Positions 52,953 through 64,000 of a DNA stretch of 64,000 nucleotides are shown here, piece by piece. Made by a program: the position numbers and the translations under genes. Under the pieces are notes generated by a model, which was not told where the DNA came from, made no database searches, and worked only from the letters and a program-made list of their open reading frames with translations. Within the stretch, counting starts at the first letter, position 1, and each line of letters begins with the position of its first letter. The stretch comes from Candidatus Parcubacteria bacterium (lineage in GTDB: Bacteria; Patescibacteriota; Minisyncoccia; UBA6257; JAGOQP01): assembly GCA_025999395.1 (NCBI GenBank), contig AP024682.1:173638-237637 (forward strand). Reading direction: 5' to 3'.

Positions 52953-53026
52953 CGCGGCCGACCGGACTTGAACCGGCAACCCCCGCCGTGACAGGGCGGT
53001 GCTCTGACCAATTGAGCTACGACCGC
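52953..53026 (-). tRNA. tRNA-Asp (GTC)
   Basis: GCGGTCG-TA-GCTC-AATTGGTCA-GAGC-A-CCGCC-CTGTCAC-GGCGG-GGGTT-GCCGG-TTCAAGT-CCGGT-CGGCCGC-G; 74 nt, no encoded CCA. Confidence 0.85.
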
Positions 53027-53248
53027 TTAGAACCTCCACTGAAAATGTGAAGTGTGAAAATGGAGGTGTGTTGCGTGCTGTATGTGCTGTAGTGTGTGCT
53101 GTAGTTAAGTAAGGATGTTTTTTGACGACCCGGCGGGGTTGGACCGCTTCCTCTTTTTAGTTTTTTATGAGGTTTTTCGGGTCGCTTTTGTATTCTATTA
53201 AAAGAGAATTAAAAGTCAAGAAAAATTTTGGAGAAAAGATTGATTTTG

Positions 53249-53320
53249 TTGCGGGGGAGGGATTTGCACCCTCGATCTCCTGGTTATGAGCCAGGCGAGA
53301 TACTACTTCTCCACCCCGCT
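53249..53320 (-). tRNA. tRNA-Met (CAT), initiator-like (unpaired A1:A72, A11)
   Basis: AGCGGGG-TG-GAGA-AGTAGTA-TCTC-G-CCTGG-CTCATAA-CCAGG-AGATC-GAGGG-TGCAAAT-CCCTC-CCCCGCA-A; aligns closely to bacterial tRNA-fMet. Confidence 0.8.
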
Positions 53321-53346
53321 ATCTTACTATTGAAAAGTCGGCTTTC

Positions 53347-53375
53347 ATTCTATATTTTTTTATTGTTTTTGTCAA
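53347..53375 (-). promoter_or_regulatory. minus-strand sigma70-like promoter TTGACA-N17-TAGAAT driving tRNA-Met
   Basis: rc of 53370-53375 = TTGACA, rc of 53347-53352 = TAGAAT; about 26 nt upstream of tRNA 5' end. Confidence 0.5.
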
Positions 53376-53380
53376 TTCTT

Positions 53381-53410
53381 TAAAAAGAAAAAAGCCGCTT
53401 TTGCGGCTTG
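53381..53410 (-). terminator. minus-strand rho-independent terminator immediately upstream of the tRNA promoter
   Basis: minus strand reads caagccgc-aaaa-gcggctt followed by TTTTTTCTTTTT. Confidence 0.5.
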
Positions 53411-53460
53411 GGTGTACTTTTTGTTGTGTGTGGTAAGTGTGCGATGAAACGCAATGAGAC

Positions 53461-53556
53461 GGTTGCGGCGCGGTCGGTTTGTTTCTTTGTTTCTTTTGTT
53501 TTTTTAACTAAACTAACTAATTATAGTAAGTATATAAAAGGGACCGCGCCGCAACC
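53461..53556. repeat. 15-bp perfect GC-rich inverted repeat (GGTTGCGGCGCGGTC / GACCGCGCCGCAACC) enclosing 66-nt AT-rich loop
   Basis: seen directly; GC-rich stems in AT-rich intergenic DNA; MITE-like or structured RNA. Confidence 0.7.
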
Positions 53557-53723
53557 AGTGTAATAATAGCATATTTAAAAATAAAGTCAAGTGCAGGCAG
53601 TTGTTATAAAAACCGATTTTCTTTAGTTTCACTCAATGGTGTTTTGGTTAATAGTATTTTGTGCGGTGCTTTTTTCAAAATAAAATCCGCCTCTAAGGCG
53701 GAAAGAGTGCTGATATAATAAAT

Positions 53724-53858
53724 GGATGCGGTGTACACTAAAGATGGGCTTTTTTGACGGGACCCCCCTTTGTCTGTTGCTGGGGGGCGAAAGTTGGCTG
53801 GAAAAAATGGACAAAAGTGGACAAGTGGACAAAAAAGATGGGAGTGTACACCGCATCC
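53724..53858. repeat. 16-bp perfect inverted repeat (GGATGCGGTGTACACT / AGTGTACACCGCATCC) enclosing 103 nt with internal C6/G6 hairpin, AAAGATGGG direct repeats and triple TGGACAA tandem array
   Basis: seen directly; 53808-53832 tggacaaaa-gtggacaa-gtggacaaa; left arm shares GG(A/T)TGCGG(C/T)G with the 53461 element. Confidence 0.7.
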
Positions 53859-53957
53859 GCGTCTCTTATCTTAAGAAAAACACTTTTTATTTTATAAGTC
53901 AAGTTTATTTTTGTCTTTATTTCTGTTAAAATCCTTTTAATTTTTTAACTGGTTTTT

Positions 53958-54395
53958 ATGACCAAAAAAAGAAAAGAAGAAATTTTAAAAGAAATCGTTG
54001 AATACTCTCAAAAATTCGTTGGTGTTCCTTATAAATACGGAGCAAAAATGGAAGAGGCGCCTCATTTTTTTGATTGCTCAAGTTTTGTTAAATATGTTTA
54101 TGAGCAATTTGGTTTTTTCCTTCCCCGAAGCACCATTCTTCAAGCTGAATTTTTAAGAAAAACAGTTAAAAGTTTAGATGATTTAAGAGAGGGAGATTTA
54201 CTTTATCTTCATGGTACTCGAGGCTATTACACCAAAAAGTTTCCTCAAGGAATTGGCCATGTAGCAATTTATCTTGGTGATGGAAAGGTTATTCACGCTG
54301 ATGGAAGCAGCAAAAAGCCGGGGGTAAAAATTGAAAAAATGGAAAAAGTTATAGAAAGAAAAAAGCCACTTGTTGTTATTAAAAGAGTGGTTTAG
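53958..54395 (+). CDS. NlpC/P60-family cell-wall peptidase
   Basis: catalytic Cys (FDCSSFVKYVYEQFG) and His (IGHVAIYLGDGKVIHA) in NlpC/P60 arrangement. Confidence 0.75.
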   Translation: MTKKRKEEILKEIVEYSQKFVGVPYKYGAKMEEAPHFFDCSSFVKYVYEQFGFFLPRSTILQAEFLRKTVKSLDDLREGDLLYLHGTRGYYTKKFPQGIGHVAIYLGDGKVIHADGSSKKPGVKIEKMEKVIERKKPLVVIKRVV

Positions 54396-54492
54396 ATTTT
54401 GGCCTTTTAAAGTTTTTTATTATTTTTAGGGTTTGATTTTTTTATTTTAACCTCTTGAAGAGCTTGTTTTTAAAAGCTATACTTCCAAAAAC

Positions 54493-54566
54493 GGCAGGGT
54501 AGCTCAGTTGGTTAGAGCGGGCGTTTCATAAGCGTCAGGTCGTGGGTTCGAATCCCACCCCTGCTA
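54493..54566 (+). tRNA. tRNA with CAT anticodon (elongator Met or Ile2-lysidine; not distinguishable by eye)
   Basis: GGCAGGG-TA-GCTC-AGTTGGTTA-GAGC-G-GGCGT-TTCATAA-GCGTC-AGGTC-GTGGG-TTCGAAT-CCCAC-CCCTGCT-A. Confidence 0.75.
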
Positions 54567-54665
54567 CTCTTCTCTATCTATCGAAGGCAAGTTCTTGGTA
54601 AGCTAGATTCTTTTACCAAAGGAAGATAATTAAAAAGCTTAAAAAAAGTAAAAATGTTATCAAGT

Positions 54666-55325
54666 TCAAACTTTGATAGTTTTTATTTCTTTTATTAGTT
54701 GTTTTATCCTTTTCCCCCACAAGCTATTTTTTATTTTGTTATCTACTTTTTCAAACAATGTTTCTAATTTTTTTAGGTAGTGTTTGCTTTTTTCAAACTG
54801 TTTTGTGAGGTTGTAAAACTTCACCAAGTTTGAGTAACACGCCCAGTTGTTTGGCTCAATTTTCATTCCTTTAAGTAGCCATTTTTCGGCGTTTTTGTAA
54901 TCTCCAATGGATTCATAAATGAATCCCACATTTTGGACATAAATTCCATAATCTAATTTATTCTGTTTAGCTAATTTAATAGCCTTTTTGGCGTAGGGGA
55001 GAGCTCTTTTGCTTTTTCTGTGCCATCAAACTCTTCCTATTCCCCAAACTGCTCCGGGAAGTTTTGGATTTATTTTTATGGCCTTTTGATAAAACTTAAT
55101 TGCTTTGTCTTCTAATTTTTTCCTTTCTTGTCCCTTCTTTCTTAAAGCAAGGTGGTCGTACAATAAACCTAAATGACAGAGAAAAAAATAATTTCTTGTC
55201 ATCTCTCTATTTTTACGCCCCAGCTTTTCCAGTTGTTGTATTCCCCATTTATATCTGTAGTTATTTGCGGCAGCTCTGAAAATCTCTTCTATCTTTTTAG
55301 ATTTATCTTCTTTTGGTTTTTCCAT
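54666..55325 (-). pseudogene. TPR-repeat protein gene interrupted by a single in-frame TGA (55028-55026 on minus strand)
   Basis: track ORFs 55026..55325 and 54666..54929 are in the same frame; read-through gives continuous TPR sequence ...GAVWGIGRV*WHRKSKRALPYAKKAIKLAKQNKLDYGIYVQNVGFIYESIGDYKNAEKWLL... Confidence 0.55.
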
Positions 55326-55545
55326 AATTACGAATATAAATGATCTCAGTATTTAATAGTACTCTAAATTTACTGGTTTTTGTATACTTGAGCTGACTTC
55401 TATTATAACTAATGCCCAATTTTATTTATTCGATGTTTTCACTACTTTCTAAAAATCAGCGGAGAGATTATGCAATTGTTGATTCTTATTTGTTTATGTT
55501 TGTTTTGGGTTATTGTATAATTCGAGTAAAATACACTGAAATACA

Positions 55546-55860
55546 GTGAAAGAAAATATGAAGGAAAAAGAAGTAAAAATAACAAGGAGTTACGAGCATG
55601 CAGATAAAGGAGAATTAGAATGGAAGGAATCTGAGGCAAGAAGAATAAGGGAAAGAATCATAAATTTAAGAAGGGATCAAATCGGAGCTTTGTCGTATTT
55701 GATTGGCGTAGAGTTTCCAAGAGACGAACTTGATCAGATTGTGTTGGAAATAAAAGAAAATGGCCAAAATTCTGTTAATATAGACGCCATTGTCTATGAA
55801 GCGGAATCAAAAGAAAAATTACTTTGGTGGCTTGATTATTTTGAGCGGCGCAACAAGTGA
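55546..55860 (+). CDS. hypothetical 104-aa protein, copy 1 of duplicated module (identical to copy 2)
   Basis: MKEKEVKITRSYEHADKGELEWKESEARRIRERIINLRRDQIGALSYLIGVEFPRDELDQIVLEIKENGQNSVNIDAIVYEAESKEKLLWWLDYFERRNK; no recognisable domain. Confidence 0.5.
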   Translation: MKENMKEKEVKITRSYEHADKGELEWKESEARRIRERIINLRRDQIGALSYLIGVEFPRDELDQIVLEIKENGQNSVNIDAIVYEAESKEKLLWWLDYFERRNK

Positions 55861-55990
55861 TTTTTTTATTGGTTTACGCCTTCTTTTTTATATTTATACT
55901 TAAACAAATACAGTATTGACTTAAAAATTATTTCTTATAATAATAATTATTGAAGCCGAGAGATTGGCTCTCGGCATAGCACATTAACAA
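55558..55990 (+). repeat. 433-bp direct repeat copy 1 (gene + promoter/5'UTR), 1 mismatch vs copy 2 at 58796..59228
   Basis: nucleotide identity from the ATG through ...ctctcggca[t/c]agcacattaacaa; both copies followed after about 22 divergent nt by shared CCCCAGAAAGGAGGTGAGA RBS block. Confidence 0.9.
55916..55944 (+). promoter_or_regulatory. promoter-like TTGACT ... TATAAT/AATAAT plus 8-bp perfect hairpin (gccgagag-attgg-ctctcggc) in the 5'UTR of peptide gene A; same in copy 2
   Basis: TTGACT 55916-55921, TATAAT 55936-55941 (14-nt spacer) or AATAAT with 17-nt spacer. Confidence 0.35.
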
Positions 55991-56034
55991 AGTTTAGACC
56001 TGGGTGAGATATCCCCAGAAAGGAGGTGAGAAGA

Positions 56035-56187
56035 ATGGCTCGCAGAAAAACATCTAGAATTCTCCGTGCTATTCGTCGAGAGGTGAAGAAGGAGAAAAAG
56101 CTTCATTTCAAGATTCGAATTACACCTGGTTGCAGCGAACTGAATTGCAGTACTTACTGCTCTGATCATGAGGATGCTGATCACTAA
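56035..56187 (+). CDS. 50-aa Cys-rich peptide A (putative RiPP precursor): basic leader + C-terminal core ITPGCSELNCSTYCSDHEDADH
   Basis: ATG 56035 nine nt after GGAGGTGA; MARRKTSRILRAIRREVKKEKKLHFKIRITPGCSELNCSTYCSDHEDADH; stop TAA 56185; below ORF-track size cutoff; directly upstream of rSAM/SPASM gene. Confidence 0.55.
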   Translation: MARRKTSRILRAIRREVKKEKKLHFKIRITPGCSELNCSTYCSDHEDADH

Positions 56188-56203
56188 CGAGAGTGGTTCT
56201 CGA

Positions 56204-56242
56204 GGGGGCGTAGTTGTCTTTTTTTAAAACAACTGCGCCCCC
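56204..56242 (+). promoter_or_regulatory. 14-bp stem-loop (GGGGGCGTAGTTGT / ACAACTGCGCCCCC) between peptide A and the radical SAM gene; no T-run
   Basis: one G.U pair, 10-11-nt loop; typical position of the processing/attenuator hairpin that sets precursor:enzyme stoichiometry in RiPP operons. Confidence 0.5.
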
Positions 56243-56276
56243 ACCGTATTTGTGCGAAGATGTAAGGAGGTGTAGG

Positions 56277-57359
56277 ATGAGAAAAAAGATGACAGTTATG
56301 ATATTACCGGTGGGATTAAGTTGTAACATGGCCTGTAAGTATTGTTATCACGATGGCAGGCCGCGTGTGAACGAGAAGCAAAGCAGAATGTCAGTTGATT
56401 TATTAAGAAAGTTGATTAAAGACAGCGCAGAATTAGCCAGTGATATTGATTTTGTTTGGCATGGAGGAGAACCGCTTCTTGCTGGAATGGAACACTTTAA
56501 GACCGCCATTGATATTCAAAGGAAGACTTGTTTTTCGGGGCGAGTCAGAAACATCATTCAAACCAATGGGGTTCTTTTGAATAAATCTTGGTGTCGATTT
56601 CTTTCGCTGAATCATTTCATAATAAGTACAAGTCTTGATGGTCCTGCAGAAATCAATGATGCAAATCGTCTTTTATTAGGAGGTGGAAAAACCTATCATC
56701 GTGTTGCAAGAGCGGTTCGATTATGGAAGCAAACCGGTAATCAAATGGGAGCTGTTGCTCTAGTAACCAGAACAAATGTAAGGTATCCTGCAGAAACGTA
56801 CAGAGGCTTGAAAAGAGTAGGTTTTAAGAGTTGTGCTTTTCACGTCTGTTCTCAAAATGATGATCAATCTGTTGATCTTGTACCCTCTGCTGAAGAAGCG
56901 GCTTATTTTCTTAAGTCGGTTTTTGATTTGTGGTTCGAGGAGGATGATCCCACGTTTTTAATTCGCAACTTTAGGAATGTTTTGAGAGTGTTGTGTGGGG
57001 GAGTAACAATTGATTGTGCCTCTCGTGTTGATGGTTGTTGGGGATTTATAGCCGTTACTGCTAACGGAGATGTTTATCCTTGTCATCGATTTGTCAACAG
57101 AACCAATTTTCGATTAGGAAATATATTAGAAGAAAGCCTCTCGGCTCTCTATAAGAAAGGATATTCACTTTACAGAGCGATGTGTTCTCTACCCGAAGAG
57201 TGTGAGCGGTGTGAATGGATAAATGTTTGCGGTGGGGGATGTGCATACGAACGTATCGTGGTTAATGGTTCTTTTCAAAGTATTCACCCAGCTTGTGAGG
57301 TAAAAAAAGAACTTTTTGCTCACATAAAAATCAAAACAAACGAGCTCATAAAGAAGTAA
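56277..57359 (+). CDS. radical SAM enzyme with C-terminal SPASM domain (anSME / peptide-maturase family)
   Basis: ATG 56277 with RBS AAGGAGG (track ORF extends upstream to 56214); CNMACKYCYHDG (CxxxCxxC), HGGEPLL, C-terminal CHRFVN...CERCEWINVCGGGCAYE auxiliary-cluster motif. Confidence 0.8.
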   Translation: MRKKMTVMILPVGLSCNMACKYCYHDGRPRVNEKQSRMSVDLLRKLIKDSAELASDIDFVWHGGEPLLAGMEHFKTAIDIQRKTCFSGRVRNIIQTNGVLLNKSWCRFLSLNHFIISTSLDGPAEINDANRLLLGGGKTYHRVARAVRLWKQTGNQMGAVALVTRTNVRYPAETYRGLKRVGFKSCAFHVCSQNDDQSVDLVPSAEEAAYFLKSVFDLWFEEDDPTFLIRNFRNVLRVLCGGVTIDCASRVDGCWGFIAVTANGDVYPCHRFVNRTNFRLGNILEESLSALYKKGYSLYRAMCSLPEECERCEWINVCGGGCAYERIVVNGSFQSIHPACEVKKELFAHIKIKTNELIKK

Positions 57360-58017
57360 CGAGCCGTTTCCGCACGGAGATGGCTCTTTTTTTTACCACA
57401 ATCCGAGCTATGGCGTGCTTATGTGGTTCTGGGTAACCCTGATGCCCTCTATCTTTTATTATTTCTTCTCTATAAAAAATTTTTTCGAAGTTTTCTTTAT
57501 CGAAGTGCTTAATTAACTCTTTAGGCTTGAGAAAATACCATTTATTTCCCTTTTTATCCCGAAAGGTCCTTTCGCTAGTTTTTATAAACTGTTTTGATCT
57601 ACTCATCTTTTTAAACATTTCGTCTTTAGTAGTGAAAGAAGAAATTATTATCAGTCCGTTTTCTTTTACCGCTGTTTTCATTTTTTTTATGATCGAGTCA
57701 AATTCTTTTTTTGAAAGAAAGAAGAGAGAGTTCGTTGCAATAATAGCAGAATAGTAGTTTTTGCGGAAAGAGAAGTCGCGGATATCTTTATGCTTAGCTT
57801 TGATGGATATATTTTGAGATTTGGCCAATCTCTTTATTTTTTCTATCTGGTTATTGTTTTTGTCAACCGCTGTTACTAAAAATCCTTTACTTGCCAGAAA
57901 CAAAGAGTTATTTCCTCTTCCACAACCCAAGTCTAACACTCTGCCTTTTGGTATGTACTTAACAAATTTACTTATTAGCGGAGAGGGTTGGTATTTGTGT
58001 TTATTATCCCGCTTCAT
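57346..58017 (-). CDS. class I SAM-dependent methyltransferase (TehB-like)
   Basis: VLDLGCGRGNNSLFLASKGFLVTAVD motif I; convergent with rSAM gene (14-nt overlap). Confidence 0.7.
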   Translation of the reverse strand: MKRDNKHKYQPSPLISKFVKYIPKGRVLDLGCGRGNNSLFLASKGFLVTAVDKNNNQIEKIKRLAKSQNISIKAKHKDIRDFSFRKNYYSAIIATNSLFFLSKKEFDSIIKKMKTAVKENGLIIISSFTTKDEMFKKMSRSKQFIKTSERTFRDKKGNKWYFLKPKELIKHFDKENFEKIFYREEIIKDRGHQGYPEPHKHAIARIVVKKRAISVRKRLVTSL

Positions 58018-58149
58018 AATCTAAGTTTTTTGTTTAATTTAGAAAAGATGGGTCTGGAGCAAACGATACTTCAAGTTTAAATTTGTATTTATTATAGTAT
58101 AGTATTAAAAAAGTTAAAAAATATCTCGTTTTTTAGCGTATTCATAAAA

Positions 58150-58668
58150 ATGACTCAAACAGAAGTAACTCAAGAAATAAAAGACATTGTCTCAGAATTT
58201 AAAACAAATGGCTTGCTGAGAATTTTTGAGATTCTAGAGTGGATTCATAAGAATTTAAAAGTAAGCCAGGACAGGGAGTATAAAAGAAAATACTTCAGAT
58301 CACGCACCTCTGATGAAATAATAAAGAGCAAAATGTTAACCGGTTGCACCGATTACGCATTGGTTTTTTTGTCTCTTATCAGAGCTAGCGGATTTGAGGC
58401 TAAATATGTGGAAGCGATTGAGACGGTGTGGTTGGAACGCGGTTGCGATGAGATTTTGGGGCATGTTTTTGTTGAGGTTTTACTCGACAATAAGTGGCTT
58501 ATCGTCGATCCTCAGGGGGCCGCAATAAAAGCGTGGTACGGAAGACGCTATGTAATATACGCTAAGGGAAATGATTCTTGGGATTTGGGAATAAAAAATT
58601 TTGATGACCTAAAAAATAAATTTATTGAATACAGAGAAAAATATTTCAATAACAGCAGAAACCCTTAA
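58150..58668 (+). CDS. transglutaminase-like cysteine-protease superfamily protein
   Basis: core LTGCTDYALVFLSLIRASGFEAKYV...GHVFVEVLLDNKWLIVDPQ (Cys-His-Asp arrangement). Confidence 0.5.
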   Translation: MTQTEVTQEIKDIVSEFKTNGLLRIFEILEWIHKNLKVSQDREYKRKYFRSRTSDEIIKSKMLTGCTDYALVFLSLIRASGFEAKYVEAIETVWLERGCDEILGHVFVEVLLDNKWLIVDPQGAAIKAWYGRRYVIYAKGNDSWDLGIKNFDDLKNKFIEYREKYFNNSRNP

Positions 58669-58795
58669 GCGATGAGCACAGGCTTCTGGTTTTCAGCATC
58701 TCCCCAGAGAGCAACAACAAAAATAGAGCCACACAGACTTGATCATGTCTCTAAAGTGTTCAACCTTAATAAAGCGAATAAAATTTTCAATTCTT

Positions 58796-59098
58796 ATGAA
58801 GGAAAAAGAAGTAAAAATAACAAGGAGTTACGAGCATGCAGATAAAGGAGAATTAGAATGGAAGGAATCTGAGGCAAGAAGAATAAGGGAAAGAATCATA
58901 AATTTAAGAAGGGATCAAATCGGAGCTTTGTCGTATTTGATTGGCGTAGAGTTTCCAAGAGACGAACTTGATCAGATTGTGTTGGAAATAAAAGAAAATG
59001 GCCAAAATTCTGTTAATATAGACGCCATTGTCTATGAAGCGGAATCAAAAGAAAAATTACTTTGGTGGCTTGATTATTTTGAGCGGCGCAACAAGTGA
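58796..59098 (+). CDS. hypothetical 104-aa protein, copy 2 (identical protein to 55546 gene)
   Basis: track ORF 58739.. has spurious upstream extension; identity begins at ATG 58796. Confidence 0.5.
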   Translation: MKEKEVKITRSYEHADKGELEWKESEARRIRERIINLRRDQIGALSYLIGVEFPRDELDQIVLEIKENGQNSVNIDAIVYEAESKEKLLWWLDYFERRNK

Positions 59099-59228
59099 TT
59101 TTTTTATTGGTTTACGCCTTCTTTTTTATATTTATACTTAAACAAATACAGTATTGACTTAAAAATTATTTCTTATAATAATAATTATTGAAGCCGAGAG
59201 ATTGGCTCTCGGCACAGCACATTAACAA
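58796..59228 (+). repeat. 433-bp direct repeat copy 2
   Basis: see copy 1; single t/c difference. Confidence 0.9.
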
Positions 59229-59275
59229 GTTGTGTGAAGCGGGTGAGGCTTCCCCAGAAAGGAGGTGAGATGATT

Positions 59276-59404
59276 ATGAAAATTCCCAAGAAATTTAGTT
59301 GGAGAATTGCTGTTGAACCGAGAAAATCAGTTCCGTGCTCCTCCGTCTTTCAAACTCAATGCAGTTGTGGCGGCAGCAGTTGCTGCGGCAAGTGTGGCAA
59401 GTGA
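59276..59404 (+). CDS. 42-aa Cys-rich peptide B (putative second RiPP precursor), 7 Cys in C-terminal 22 residues
   Basis: MKIPKKFSWRIAVEPRKSVPCSSVFQTQCSCGGSSCCGKCGK; ATG 59276 ten nt after GGAGG (alternative ATG 59270); stop TGA 59402; below track cutoff. Confidence 0.5.
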   Translation: MKIPKKFSWRIAVEPRKSVPCSSVFQTQCSCGGSSCCGKCGK

Positions 59405-59426
59405 TCGAGCGACGTTTTAAGTTCTC

Positions 59427-59465
59427 GGGGTATTATGGAAATAGTCATAATACCCCATTTTTTTA
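59427..59465 (+). terminator. rho-independent terminator after peptide B (ggggtattatg-gaaatagt-cataatacccc + ATTTTTTT)
   Basis: 11-bp perfect stem followed by T-run. Confidence 0.75.
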
Positions 59466-59474
59466 CAGTTTATT

Positions 59475-60281
59475 TTATGATTCTATTATTTTGTCAGAGC
59501 TGATTTGAATAATTTTTTTCCAAGAAAGCTTCGGGTGTTTATTTCTGAATTTCTTCATAAAATAGTATCCAATTGAGTATCCTGTCCACTGCTTATATTT
59601 TTTATTTCCGTAAAATATTTTCTTATATAATCCAATACCATTTTTGTTCAAGTATGACTTTAGTGTTTCAAATTGCCTAATAGTTTCCTCTTCTGTTAAA
59701 GCCAGGGTCCAAGGAGAGCGACTACCTTTAACTATCTCCTCTCTAAAAACTTCTGCCATTCCCTCCATTGCCATATATGTTCTGAGGTTATACGATTTTT
59801 CTTTATGGTATCTGTAGAATACTAAATGATTCCACTCATGTGCGATGGTTTCTGTTAAGGATTGTTTACTATAATTATTTGGGTTTATAAATATGTGCAT
59901 AGTGTAATAAGTTGCAAAAGCTGTTACTCCTTGAAAAAGAGAGAGTTTTTTTGTATTAGGAAACCACGGATATATAAAGATAAATATGGGTGGATCTGGG
60001 TGTGGTAAAAATTGATGGCATTTTTTTAGTGTCTTGTGGATGTTTTTTTTGATAAATGATTTTTGTTTTATTGAAAGTGGTTGATACTGAATAAAATTAC
60101 TTCTACTCACATATGATTCTAAATCTTTTTGAAATTTCTTTTTATTTGAGTAGCCAACATATTTAATATTCCCCGACTCTTCCATTTCGTTTATAATCAA
60201 CCCAACAAGCTTTTGTTCGCTTCTAAGCCGATGTATCTTTTTAGGAAAGCAGAAGTTGATTTTTGCTAAGCTTAGATCCAT
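59475..60281 (-). CDS. putative Zn-metallopeptidase-like protein (HExxH ... E motif)
   Basis: ETIAHEWNHLVFYRY (HExxH) and downstream MAMEGMAEVF; no signal peptide; convergent on peptide B. Confidence 0.45.
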   Translation of the reverse strand: MDLSLAKINFCFPKKIHRLRSEQKLVGLIINEMEESGNIKYVGYSNKKKFQKDLESYVSRSNFIQYQPLSIKQKSFIKKNIHKTLKKCHQFLPHPDPPIFIFIYPWFPNTKKLSLFQGVTAFATYYTMHIFINPNNYSKQSLTETIAHEWNHLVFYRYHKEKSYNLRTYMAMEGMAEVFREEIVKGSRSPWTLALTEEETIRQFETLKSYLNKNGIGLYKKIFYGNKKYKQWTGYSIGYYFMKKFRNKHPKLSWKKIIQISSDKIIES

Positions 60282-60357
60282 GCTTTTATTATGTTCTTCG
60301 CACTTTAATTTATATAATTATTTATACAAATACAACTATATTATATCAAGTATAATC

Positions 60358-60386
60358 GCGGGGCGGAAAACGCTGTTCCGCCCCGC
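60358..60386 (-). terminator. 11-bp perfect GC hairpin (gcggggcggaa / ttccgccccgc) just downstream of minus-strand ORF 60392..60658
   Basis: seen in sequence; trailing U-tract on minus strand is weak. Confidence 0.35.
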
Positions 60387-60391
60387 ACGAG

Positions 60392-60658
60392 TTACGCAAA
60401 AGGATGCGGGAATTTAGTGATGTTTGCGTATGAAAGGCTAACTCCTCCAAACTCGTAAGCTATTGTGTATAGCCTCTCTACTCCTCCTGGTTCTTGTCGG
60501 TAGCCAAATGTCATTGGTACTATTCCAGTGACAATGGATCGGATGATGTGTAGGTTGCCATTCTCGCTGTATTTGTCCGAGAGGAATCGAGGGAGTAGTC
60601 TTTCGATTATACTATTGACTTTTTTTAATGTGATTGGTATAATTTGGGCATCGCACAT
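60392..60658 (-). CDS. hypothetical 88-aa protein
   Basis: ORF only; no motif. Confidence 0.25.
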   Translation of the reverse strand: MCDAQIIPITLKKVNSIIERLLPRFLSDKYSENGNLHIIRSIVTGIVPMTFGYRQEPGGVERLYTIAYEFGGVSLSYANITKFPHPFA

Positions 60659-60791
60659 TGAAAATTTTTATTCGCTTCCGATACTACTGAATTGTTGGTC
60701 TTACGGGGTTTTTGAATCTAAGTTTTTCTTGGGTTTAAAAACCCCGTAAGACCTGAACCTTTTAAAGGCAGGCAGGGAAAAGGAGGCAGCC

Positions 60792-61952
60792 ATGAACCGC
60801 AAATGTTTTGGCGTGTTTATTGTTATGGCGGTTCTTGCCGCCATAACAAATCAAGCGGAGCCGGCGGCATCTTCACCTTCTGAAAGTGTTTCGAGCATAA
60901 TAACGCTTGAAGCGAACAGCATGTCTCGTGCTGGCTACGGTGCGGTGGAAGCTAACTACTGGATGGACCAACTCGGATTTACTCGAGATCCGGCCGTTAT
61001 CCAAGATGCCATGGATAGATACTACATGTTTGCTCCAGAAGGAATGCCGAGGCGTTGGGGTGATGGTTGGCTTAGCAAATTCGTTGCTAGTTTGCTAGCG
61101 ATTAGGGCGTGGGATATTCGCGACAAGCTGACAGAACCTCAAAAGTCCCAGCTCAATGAAATCCTTACAGATGCGATTCGGGAGGAAACATTTCGACTGG
61201 ATATGACTTGTGGTATCGACCCTTGGAATTCCTGCTCCGAAGACTTCGTTTCTTACTTAGCCCTACTTTCTCGGGTAAAGAACCTTTATCCTACTGTTGC
61301 AGAAAAAGCTGGAATCGGTTATGTGAGTAGTTTGGAGCGAAAATACTTAGAACTCACCTTTTCTACAGATAAAGGTTACTACTCGCTGGTTCGCGAACAA
61401 ACTCAAGATGGTATGCGGGTGTTGATGCACAACCATGGAGAGCAATCAGCGGTTTACACGGGCCTGCTTTTAATCTATTTAAACCACACTCTGCGAGCTT
61501 ACTCTTTAGCAAACAATCCTCTGCCCGACTATTTTTGCCAGGACTGGTTGATGGCCAACATCCGGGACATGTTTGAGTGGCTTCAATCGGTTTCGACTTC
61601 TGATGGGCTCTCCTTTTTAAACAGTTGTCTAAACGCTGAAGGCAATTTAGTCTCCTGCTCTGATATGAAGGTAGCTAATGCTGTTCCTAGAGTCGTACCT
61701 GCTGGTCGCCTGATGGTGAATTTAGTAACGAGCGGCGTTTTCAAGACGGAGGAGATCTTTTCTCTCCACGAATACCATTACCGCTTCTTTGATATAACTT
61801 ACAACGGCGGCAACATTTCAAACAATGGTCGACGCGCTGATTACAATTTGGATAATCAGGAGTTCGAGGTTCTGTGGGAAAACCCCTGCCACCTCTCTTC
61901 TCATCATTCGCTGAGACAACCACGCAGACACCTTCGCTCTGTTGATAAATGA
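60792..61952 (+). CDS. secreted protein of unknown function, paralog A (GC-rich copy)
   Basis: signal peptide MNRKCFGVFIVMAVLAAITNQA; shares blocks AVEANYW, GWLSKFVAS, FRLD.TCGIDPWNSCSEDFVS.LAL..RVKN.YP, NHGEQSAVY..LLLIYLNH with 62156 gene; GC3-rich codons unlike neighbours. Confidence 0.5.
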   Translation: MNRKCFGVFIVMAVLAAITNQAEPAASSPSESVSSIITLEANSMSRAGYGAVEANYWMDQLGFTRDPAVIQDAMDRYYMFAPEGMPRRWGDGWLSKFVASLLAIRAWDIRDKLTEPQKSQLNEILTDAIREETFRLDMTCGIDPWNSCSEDFVSYLALLSRVKNLYPTVAEKAGIGYVSSLERKYLELTFSTDKGYYSLVREQTQDGMRVLMHNHGEQSAVYTGLLLIYLNHTLRAYSLANNPLPDYFCQDWLMANIRDMFEWLQSVSTSDGLSFLNSCLNAEGNLVSCSDMKVANAVPRVVPAGRLMVNLVTSGVFKTEEIFSLHEYHYRFFDITYNGGNISNNGRRADYNLDNQEFEVLWENPCHLSSHHSLRQPRRHLRSVDK

Positions 61953-62155: not shown

Positions 62156-63616
62156 ATGGGGGAAAAATTTGATAATCGTAATCATTCATCTGAAAATGTT
62201 TCTCAGGAAACAGATGAAAGGTCTCGGAAGAGAGAGGGAGGAGCAAAAAAATACCTAAAAAAGGTAGCTGCTCTGATTTTAGGAGCGGCAGCAAGTTTTT
62301 CTTCTGGTGGAGAGTTGGCGAGCCGGTCACTTTTTGAAACTTTTGAGGAAGAAGAAAAAACCGCGGTAGCGCAGGCATCAGAAATTCAAGATTCGTTAGA
62401 AAATAATTCCCTTTCTTTTCTTACGCCAGAGGAAATAAAGGAAATTAATTTCTTAATAAAGGAAGCTATTAAAAAAGAAGTAGAAGCCTCTACTAAAAAA
62501 GAAATAAAAGCTTCCACCTTGGAGACCGATCCTTTAGGAAATAATTGGGAAAGATCTTTGGAGGGGGCGGTTGAGGCTAATTATTGGAGTAATGAATTAG
62601 GATTGACAGAAGAAGATTTAAAAAAATTTGAAAACAATCCTGAAGAATTTGGAAGGAATTACGCAAAAACAATTCAGCGCGCTCTTGATAGTTACTATCT
62701 TATTGCTTCACCAGGTGCTCCTTACAAATGGGGAAATGGCTGGCTTTCTAAATTTGTGGCCAGCAATTTAGCAATCAATGGTTATAGATTTAGAGATTAT
62801 CTTTCTAGCGAACAAAAAGAACAATTAAATACAGTTTTGGCAGATGCGGTTAAACTTTCTACTTTTCGATTGGATACCACTTGTGGGATTGATCCTTGGA
62901 ATTCTTGTTCAGAAGATTTTGTTTCCTTTCTAGCTTTAATTGCTCGAGTAAAAAACTTTTATCCGGAGGTTGTTTCACGAGTCGAGAAAGAATTGGGGGA
63001 AGATTATTTTATTAATGTAGAAAAAAAATTTCTTGAGCTTACTTTTACGGACGAAAATGGATTCTATTCGTTAGTGAGAGAAGAAACAGGGTTACAAGAC
63101 GGAGTTTCTTATGTATTGGCTCGAAATCATGGTGAGCAATCAGCAGTTTATAGTGCACTTCTACTTATCTACTTAAATCATGCCTTGGCATCATATCCGC
63201 TTAGTGGCAATAAAATCCCTGGTTTTTATCGAGATAGTAAGATTATTGAAAACATTAAGTCTTTATTTTCCTGGCTTCAGGAAGTGAGTTCTCCTGATGG
63301 AAATTCATTTTTGGGGGCTTGTCAAACTTCTGGAAAAGAAATTGTCGCTTGTAATGATTCTAAAGTAGCTAATGCTATTCCTAAAGTGTTACCAGCTGGA
63401 AGATTGATAAAAAATCTGATAGTTGCTGGAGTTTTGCCGAAAGAAGTTTTTAAAGAAAACAAGTATCATTATCTTGATTTTGATTCTTCTTATGAGGGGG
63501 GGAATATAAAAAACAAGGGTCGGCAAGAGGATTATAATTTAGATAATTTAATGTTCGAGCGAGGGAGGTTGGTATTTATGCTCCCTCCAATAAGAAGAGT
63601 TTTAAGGGGTCGTTGA
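62156..63616 (+). CDS. secreted protein of unknown function, paralog B (AT-rich copy with extra N-terminal acidic/Lys-rich region)
   Basis: homologous to 60792 gene over about 330 aa. Confidence 0.5.
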   Translation: MGEKFDNRNHSSENVSQETDERSRKREGGAKKYLKKVAALILGAAASFSSGGELASRSLFETFEEEEKTAVAQASEIQDSLENNSLSFLTPEEIKEINFLIKEAIKKEVEASTKKEIKASTLETDPLGNNWERSLEGAVEANYWSNELGLTEEDLKKFENNPEEFGRNYAKTIQRALDSYYLIASPGAPYKWGNGWLSKFVASNLAINGYRFRDYLSSEQKEQLNTVLADAVKLSTFRLDTTCGIDPWNSCSEDFVSFLALIARVKNFYPEVVSRVEKELGEDYFINVEKKFLELTFTDENGFYSLVREETGLQDGVSYVLARNHGEQSAVYSALLLIYLNHALASYPLSGNKIPGFYRDSKIIENIKSLFSWLQEVSSPDGNSFLGACQTSGKEIVACNDSKVANAIPKVLPAGRLIKNLIVAGVLPKEVFKENKYHYLDFDSSYEGGNIKNKGRQEDYNLDNLMFERGRLVFMLPPIRRVLRGR

Positions 63617-63876: not shown

Positions 63877-64000
63877 GAACAAAAATAAAATTTTTATTAT
63901 TACAGCAACTCTGCTATTACTTGTTGGTGGTATCTTTTATTTTAGTAAAGAAGCATTAGCAGCTTGTGTTGATCCTGTATCTGGGGAAGTAATAACTTTA
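63877..64000 (+). CDS. partial secreted protein (N-terminus only), N-terminal pattern like the 33913 protein
   Basis: MNKNKIFIITATLLLLVGGIFYFSKEALAACVDPVSGEVITL... runs off window; compare ...KLALATCNPVTGEGEGL in the 33913 protein. Confidence 0.35.

Follow-up and report, generated by a model that had tools for sequence, protein, structure and literature searches.

Deletion and amplification between direct repeats, as well as the concerted evolution of paralogues, belong to general bacterial genetics. In the pneumococcal blp locus (bacteriocin immunity region), each operon has the same regulated promoter element in front. The content of the blp locus varies among close strains, a variation attributed to homologous recombination at shared sequences (PMC4860687). 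Here we describe a locus of related design from a Candidatus Parcubacteria bacterium, located within a stretch of 64,000 nt of the contig AP024682.1 (positions 173,638 to 237,637; this whole stretch is referred to as the window), in which an almost identical direct repeat stands in front of two different short peptide genes, pep1 and pep2. Each copy of the repeat carries the gene of an orphan protein of 100 amino acids (designated SP100), a promoter-like sequence and the beginning of a leader RNA. It is probable, in our judgement, that the two copies are real paralogous expression modules at old positions, that they have been homogenised recently, and that recombination drives the turnover of the gene cassettes linked to them. 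The genomes of the candidate phyla radiation (CPR or Patescibacteria), to which this bacterium belongs, are tiny, and their secondary metabolism is, to our knowledge, little known.

Organization of the repeat pair

The two copies, R1 (55557–55990) and R2 (58795–59228), are direct repeats of 434 nt, both on the + strand, with a distance of 3238 nt from the start of R1 to the start of R2. Exact alignment gives a single mismatch, T at 55977 in R1 and C at 59215 in R2 (99.77% identity over 434 nt). An earlier note on this DNA, made from the sequence alone, had already recognized the location of the repeats and the one t/c difference near the 3' end; its left edge was off by 1 nt, giving 433 nt instead of 434 nt. 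Each copy has three parts: the SP100 open reading frame (ORF), with its ATG beginning at base 2 of the repeat, a sigma70-like promoter, and 43 nt from the beginning of the leader, which make up its 5' half. The ORF of 104 amino acids that the note had assigned to the repeat depends on an upstream GTG that falls outside the repeat; the shared ORF starts at the ATG at 55558 or 58796 and encodes 100 amino acids, as in the database form. The proteins encoded by copy 1 (55558–55860, + strand; BCX15971.1, KatS3mg098_200) and copy 2 (58796–59098, + strand; BCX15975.1, KatS3mg098_204) are identical in sequence.

Downstream from both repeats, about 22 nt are essentially unalignable and are followed by a block of 33 nt (56002–56034 and 59241–59273). 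This gap and the block had been noticed before, the latter as an identical sequence; the block as a whole is 88% identical, and the exact identity applies to CCCCAGAAAGGAGGTGAGA within it, which is present exactly twice in the window against a chance expectation of 0.02 (up to 3 mismatches allowed). Past the block, two short ORFs, pep1 and pep2, are without relation to each other, and the sequences 5' of R1 and R2 are also mutually unrelated. The surroundings, once described as a diverged neighbourhood, are unrelated sequence and not a diverged duplicate. No further long repeat of high identity was detected in the 64-kb window. The segment between the two repeats holds pep1, the gene of a radical S-adenosylmethionine (SAM) enzyme (rSAM), a methyltransferase gene (MT) and the gene of a transglutaminase-core protein (TG).

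Natural variants of the locus

For description of the variants, the left flank of R1 (55331–55556, strand not assigned) is designated A3, and the 3' halves of the leader in front of pep1 and pep2 are designated U1 and U2, respectively. The survey covered contigs 97–100% identical to the window, and combinations of flanks were counted on single contigs. Two contigs, L001 (GCA_900175145.1) and L005, carry the arrangement A3-R-U2-pep2, in which a single repeat, of the copy-2 allele, joins the flank on the left of copy 1 to that on the right of copy 2; L005 showed 0 mismatches to the window in 1218 nt. This is the product, with the outer flanks and a single repeat, predicted by the earlier note when it described the repeats as a substrate for deletion. 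Inversion of the intervening genes, proposed at the same time, is impossible because the repeats are in direct orientation.

The arrangement A3-R-delta was found in three contigs, L002, L003 and L004. After A3-R in L003 and L004, the sequence 59131–59288 (+ strand), which includes the promoter, the leader and the first pep2 codons, gives way to a 9-nt filler AAAAACTTT, and the same swap is present in L002 and L009. The contig L009 is arranged as X-MT-TG-R-delta, with an alternative left segment (X) and without R1, pep1 and rSAM, while L002 represents a re-ordered two-copy form in which the TG-linked SP100 gene is a decayed remnant (86% identical, with an internal deletion) and the TG gene is truncated. 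In L040, an SP100 paralogue of 68% identity adjoins the 3' end of MT. In each of the four promoter-deleted strains the first core Cys is gone from the pep2 remnant, replaced by H in three of them and by R in the other, which fits decay after silencing. Among the combinations of the left flanks (A3 and TG) with the right flanks (U1-pep1, U2-pep2 and delta), 5 of the 6 were found, including the two of the window, indicating that the repeat is a recombination joint in nature. The arrangement TG-R-U1, the junction of the reciprocal product, was present in none of the contigs.

Allele pattern of the two copies

The sequence of R2 is identical at 336 of 336 sites to the A3-linked alleles of L001 to L005, and R1 and R2 differ at none of these sites. 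The TG-linked copy of L009, the only other intact one, differs from the window at 9 of the 336 sites (3 amino-acid changes and 6 silent), and the MT-TG flank of the same contig differs at 3 of 1405. The copies within the genome are closer to each other than to the orthologue at the same position, and the tract of identity has a sharp border, a combination that we read as gene conversion. This border lies at 55977–55991, next to the 3' half of the leader, of which two old variants exist, the U1 type being common to L040 and the U2 type to L006 and L039. A simple recent duplication would have had to collect about 16 changes within 22 nt while leaving 420 nt untouched. A3-R was found in a further five contigs and TG-R in six; both positions of the module are therefore old. 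Of the two origins offered in the earlier note, recent duplication or conversion, homogenisation agrees with the counts (336/336 against 9/336); the two-copy state is old, for which reason conversion fits better than fresh duplication.

The same pattern was observed independently in L006, of which the SP100 is 47% identical to that of the window. Between the two SP100 paralogues of L006, identity is about 50% for most of the length of the gene but rises abruptly to about 92% for its final 45 nt together with the promoter and the leader. This step in identity reads as a signature of conversion.

Promoter and leader RNA

Both promoter-like sites, at 55916–55944 and 59154–59182 (+ strand), have the same sequence, TTGACT-17-AATAAT (10 of 12 matches), and share the top score in the region scanned. 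The leader of pep1 (55948–56037, + strand) contains a 5' hairpin at 55955–75 and a conserved single-stranded stretch, and gave a covariance-model score of 103 bits; that of pep2 (59186–59276, + strand), with its hairpin at 59193–59213, gave 97.9 bits. The leader opens with the hairpin GCCGAGAG-AUUGG-CUCUCGGC. Seven leaders from four lineages could be aligned, and five kinds of gene are located downstream from them: pep1, pep2, the gene of a 65-aa peptide (three times), an ATP-grasp gene and a lipoprotein gene. The shuffling of peptide cassettes onto a common expression module, suggested by the earlier note, is in agreement with this association of one leader type with pep1, pep2 and, in relatives, the 65-aa peptide, ATP-grasp and lipoprotein genes.

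For the 5' hairpin, all 56 of the 56 sequence-pair cells are paired, compensatory changes occur in 4 of the 8 pairs, and several pairs are G-U. The observed covariation score was reached by 0 of 500 shuffles, and shifted registers collapsed. The G-U pairs favour a structure formed in RNA, on the + strand, over an operator in DNA. In all leader copies, an additional 6-bp helix is predicted, in which the sequence upstream of a CCCC run pairs with GGAGGU; in the leader of pep1 (56009–14/56022–27, + strand) this helix would cover the ribosome-binding site (Shine-Dalgarno sequence, SD).

Besides tRNAs, an Rfam scan of 53000–61000 gave weak matches far below the gathering score, none of them on the leader. 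The leader covariance model detected no new copies in the window or in more distant loci, save one weak match (the second leader of L039), indicating that the leader is lineage-restricted. In other lineages, different promoter/leader modules of their own recur two or three times inside the SP100 locus, as in L018 (600–763 and 1660–1815), L019 (3465–3632, 5452–5619 and 6364–6531) and L028 (3914–4079 and 6949–7113); the module of L019 holds a conserved mini-ORF, MDFSSVKKFF.... A hairpin with the loop GUCUxUAAAC is conserved between the 65-aa peptide gene and SP100 in L006 (9960–9995), L018 (945–975) and L038 to L040, and its 5' part, TAGACCTGGG, recurs in the pep1 leader of the window (55995–56005).

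Proposed mechanism and alternative explanations

Starting from what was observed, namely the repeat and what it contains, the independent data in which it is present, the alternative architectures and the pattern of alleles, we propose the following course of events. A module of about 480 bp, in which the orphan SP100 gene is joined to a promoter of sigma70 type and to a structured 5' leader RNA carrying a strong ribosome-binding site, would have occupied both sites, after A3 and after TG, for a long time in the population. In the lineage of the window, the first 420 nt of both modules would have been equalised recently by homologous recombination, either gene conversion or crossover, the right edge of the equalised tract being just past the leader hairpin, where the old 3' halves of U1 and U2 type start. 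The identical tract would then serve for homologous recombination between the copies, presumably of RecA type, which would remove, or in the reverse direction insert, the 3.2-kb pep1-rSAM-MT-TG segment together with one repeat. Recombination with the copies of other strains would re-pair the left and right flanks. The outcome would be an island resembling those for peptides made on the ribosome and modified after translation (RiPPs), in which cassettes come and go and take their place behind a shared promoter and leader. The promoter and the leader are presumably active.

An artefact of assembly could give the same picture if there were one true copy and the pep1-rSAM-MT-TG segment of another strain or of a circular element had been spliced in at the shared repeat. 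The one-copy form with 100% identical flanks does exist in another sample (L005), and mixtures of strains are evident in these metagenomes. However, the set of metagenome-assembled genomes (MAGs) was assembled with metaFlye from PacBio HiFi reads with an N50 of 10.5 kb (PMC9671151), by which single reads would span the 3.7-kb structure. The deposited MAG in GenBank has the same order, the identical SP100 protein being present twice (KatS3mg098_200 and _204) with the rSAM protein BCX15972.1 and the TG protein BCX15974.1 (_203) in between. The Logan unitig L007 from another sample corresponds to 55947–58824, beginning 30 nt before the copy-1 T and stopping 30 nt into copy 2, as would be expected of a k=31 graph for a segment that has the repeat at its ends. 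L005 and L007 come from the short-read runs SRR32929648 and SRR32929653. The short-read unitigs L008, L010 and L011, also from other samples, agree with L007 in that the breaks are exactly at the repeat edges. The junction of TG with R is present in six independent contigs and that of R (T allele) with pep1 in L007 and L008, and the single-nucleotide difference of the copies is linked to different downstream sequences. The artefact, against which the earlier note had asked for a check, is very unlikely in view of the gene order, the HiFi read length and the unitig breaks.

A true structure of this kind could also be formed by a very recent Campbell-type insertion, in which circular or transformed R-pep1-rSAM-MT-TG DNA entered by a single crossover at a resident chromosomal R, giving two identical repeats at once. 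The order A3-R-segment-R-pep2 is the structure expected after such an integration, a one-copy form with window-identical flanks exists (L005), and the T/C marker is located at the 3' edge, where it would be left by a crossover at any point of the first 420 nt. In L009 and L002, however, TG-R is found with diverged R alleles and without pep1-rSAM, indicating that MT-TG-R is an older backbone and not part of one incoming unit; the segment X takes the place of A3-R-pep1-rSAM and not of the whole block. This insertion, which we regard as unlikely, overlaps with the preferred explanation, because both use the same recombination, run in reverse. A transposable element or site-specific cassette (miniature inverted-repeat transposable element, insertion sequence remnant or integron-like), having copied itself to two sites, would account for the sharp boundaries between the repeats and unrelated flanks and for the clustering of breakpoints at module edges (55557, 59130 and the promoter in L040). 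Nevertheless, terminal inverted repeats are absent at the ends of the copies, reading of the aligned flanks by eye revealed no target-site duplication, scanning of the neighbouring ORFs detected neither a transposase nor an integrase domain, and just two copies are present in 64 kb; furthermore, the unit is bounded on its left by a start codon, and on its right it stops within a leader that stays homologous beyond this point. Transposons, miniature elements and integron cassettes were rejected on these grounds, and we give a mobile unit hardly any credence. Selection alone might keep the copies identical, for instance if both promoters answer one regulator, and promoter/leader modules are indeed repeated within the loci of other lineages (L006, L018, L019, L028/29) while the SP100 gene is under purifying selection across strains. 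Purifying selection, however, does not remove synonymous or neutral differences, and since the allele at the TG position of L009 has accumulated its nine differences, six of them silent, identity at all 420 positions needs copying; the sharp step of identity in L006 is again what conversion leaves behind. Maintenance by selection alone is thus very improbable.

Several points weigh against the explanation by recombination between old modules. Deletion from a two-copy form and insertion into a one-copy form give the same sequences, so that the direction of the change may be either. The single-repeat contigs are metagenome assemblies, and a minority two-copy strain is possible in the same samples; both the structure and its variants were judged on contigs and unitigs. 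As to the leader, the activity of promoter and leader rests on consensus matches and on covariation in 7 sequences from about four lineages, and the SD-sequestering helix shows one-sided changes and no compensatory ones, and stays for this reason a prediction. SP100 is tied to the promoter and leader by adjacency only.

The SP100 protein family

The SP100 protein of the window is acidic, predicted to be all-helical, and of no known family. The family is small and rare: a total of 71 clusters were identified at E≤0.001 among 1.84 billion representative proteins, and 6 of the 6 members that could be assigned to genomes are from the CPR (Paceibacterota, Colwellbacteria, Saccharibacteria and unclassified MAGs). 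SP100 and 62 relatives gave noise only when compared with Pfam, NCBIfam and PDB sequences. The AlphaFold (AF2) model, with a mean confidence (pLDDT) of 84, consists of six helices after a disordered N-terminus, with no strands, and no significant neighbour was found among PDB and BFVD structures. The family is mostly acidic, with a median isoelectric point of 5.45, whereas pep1 and pep2 are strongly basic.

Two other roles of SP100 were considered. A PqqD-like RiPP recognition element (RRE), for which a winged helix with a three-stranded sheet would be expected, was rejected, because the model is all-helical and neither SP100 nor the 62 members match Pfam or NCBIfam. A DNA-binding repressor acting on the hairpin as an 'operator' is less likely, since the G-U pairing points to RNA and the family is mostly acidic.

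SP100 is usually a neighbour of RiPP-type genes. In about 25 SP100 loci, the neighbours include radical SAM enzymes (5 loci), M16 peptidases (4), ATP-grasp enzymes of MvdD type (2–3) and a C39 peptidase (1). In at least 15 loci, a conserved peptide of about 60 amino acids, rich in His, Asp and Lys, is encoded immediately 5' of SP100. Its motif is W[KR]TS.PH...H.D...D..G.[KR]D...GK.KIS...P..RD[IV].PP.KK, and it is found at L006 9762–9959, L018 762–941, L039 157–345, L040 488–667 and in others; it is absent from the window. The 65-aa peptide matched no Pfam family, and in L031 the sequence of the approximately 60-aa peptide forms the C-terminus of a DUF1771 protein. The contig L029 (1–8489, Ga0209204_1004111) contains more than two tandem copies of a 4576-bp unit with genes for a peptide, a tetratricopeptide repeat (TPR) protein, an ATP-grasp enzyme, SP100 and a 282-aa protein; this contig could be either a circular element of small size or a product of faulty assembly.

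Our best guess, of low confidence, is an accessory role for SP100, which would either bind the peptides, as a chaperone or immunity protein, or control their expression. We also consider, as a speculation with decidedly small chances, that SP100 and the leader RNA together form a self-contained, portable and CPR-specific control unit, in which SP100 would act on the promoter/leader or on the cationic peptides, and which would serve as a homology 'handle' for swapping RiPP-type cassettes (rSAM, ATP-grasp, 65-aa peptide) between strains. If true, this would represent an integron-like cassette economy operated by homologous recombination, with no integrase.

Genes associated with the repeats

The genes behind R1 and R2 are organized in two separate units. 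In unit 1, R1 heads pep1 (56035–56187, + strand), followed by a GC-rich hairpin, rSAM and a terminator-like site. The pep1 gene encodes a putative RiPP precursor of 50 amino acids, with a basic leader as the N-terminal half and the C-terminal core GCSELNCSTYCSDHEDADH. The hairpin in the gap between pep1 and rSAM (56204–56242, + strand), as read from the sequence, is not followed by a T-run and may be an attenuator or stabiliser. The rSAM gene (56277–57359, + strand; 360 amino acids from the ATG behind AAGGAGG) lies 90 nt downstream from pep1, which has a strong ribosome-binding site; a hairpin with a T-run at 57361–57386 (+ strand), detected by the sequence scan, closes the unit in the manner of a terminator. 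The MT gene (57346–58017, − strand), a profile match to TehB-like SAM-dependent methyltransferases, is convergent with rSAM and is followed by TG (58150–58668, + strand; 172 amino acids), a profile match to transglutaminase-core proteins. In unit 2, R2 heads pep2 (59270–59404, + strand; alternative start at 59276), a putative precursor of 44 amino acids with six Cys, directly followed by an intrinsic-terminator-like hairpin and T-run (59427–59456, + strand; sequence scan). The GC content does not mark the segment between the repeats as foreign.

The rSAM protein matches PF04055 and PF13186 and is adjoined by a short precursor-like ORF, as is characteristic of rSAM/SPASM RiPP clusters, and pep1 and pep2 are candidate substrates of this enzyme. 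The rSAM protein is closest to anaerobic sulfatase maturase (anSME) and DynA, but its NCBIfam scores are all under the curated cut-offs (anSME, 261.6 against 349; DynA, 228.8 against 450; PapB, 139 against 340), and none of rSAM, pep1 and pep2 matched a named maturase or precursor family (anSME, DynA, PapB, SCIFF and others) at the curated cut-off. The assignment of pep2 as a SCIFF peptide was rejected because of the lack of a profile match. Both pep1 and pep2 are apparently unannotated in the GenBank entry for KatS3mg098. Logan gene calls are the only source of pep1, and pep2 was in none of the collections searched.

The locus is part of a variable island that is bounded by NlpC/P60 and tRNA-Met (54493–54567) and by GreA and peptidyl-tRNA hydrolase, and that extends beyond position 64000. 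The same bounds are found in the lineage of the window (L001) and in the distant L006 (1133–17130), the position being conserved and the content variable. On the left side, two short TPR ORFs (54666–54929 and 55026–55325, − strand; 87 and 99 amino acids) look like pieces of a longer TPR gene; the corresponding gene in L002 encodes 224 amino acids, and the TPR region is also duplicated there. On the right side, an inverted repeat at 60697–60753 (26-nt arms, 88% complementary), between a DUF2268 gene and the gene of a 386-aa protein, is probably a bidirectional terminator, and L001 has about 660 nt extra near 60700–60800 relative to the window. Two paralogous large proteins (60792–61952 and 62156–63616; 386 and 486 amino acids) gave no Pfam match.

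Comparison with known systems

The locus may be described as a RiPP-like island, of which the content turns over among nearly identical strains by recombination at a shared expression module, and most of the recombinant forms of this locus in a CPR bacterium are preserved in public metagenomes. Three undescribed parts recur together: a family of orphan helical proteins, the conserved 65-aa peptide that accompanies it, and a structured leader RNA. These parts are targets for finding and expressing peptide natural products of the CPR.

With respect to the leader, the predicted 6-bp helix over GGAGGU, in a hot-spring organism that lives at 52 degrees C, is similar to the SD-sequestering leaders of RNA thermometers and translational riboswitch platforms; these differ from the helix described here, which is without compensatory covariation, an Rfam match or an evident ligand-binding domain, and the similarity is one of resemblance only. 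The rSAM enzyme is like the rSAM-SPASM maturases of anSME, DynA and PapB type (ranthipeptide, sactipeptide and cyclophane) in having a radical SAM core and a SPASM domain. As in anSME and DynA, an N-terminal RRE domain is missing, and the gene is located directly 3' of a short Cys-rich ORF. In contrast to these maturases, it stays under every curated cut-off, and pep1 and pep2 match no precursor family.

As in the blp locus of pneumococcus, variable sets of small-peptide genes are located at a fixed chromosomal locus. It differs from blp in several respects: the unit held in common contains an entire gene, that of an orphan protein, as well as a structured 5' leader RNA; neither a two-component or quorum-sensing regulator nor an ABC transporter was found in the island; the host belongs to the Parcubacteria (CPR); and the peptides, rich in Cys, are accompanied by a radical SAM enzyme. 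As in the direct-repeat systems, a segment found in some strains and missing from others has near-identical direct repeats of a few hundred bp on both sides, and one hybrid repeat is left; as in concerted evolution, paralogues are homogenised with sharp tract borders. No mechanistic difference from the direct-repeat systems was detected, and what is unusual is the nature of the repeat, a promoter/leader module, and the occurrence of five combinations of flanks in natural samples. The recombination mechanism is ordinary and of the textbook type, while the gene-promoter-leader module, made of undescribed parts, is itself undescribed.

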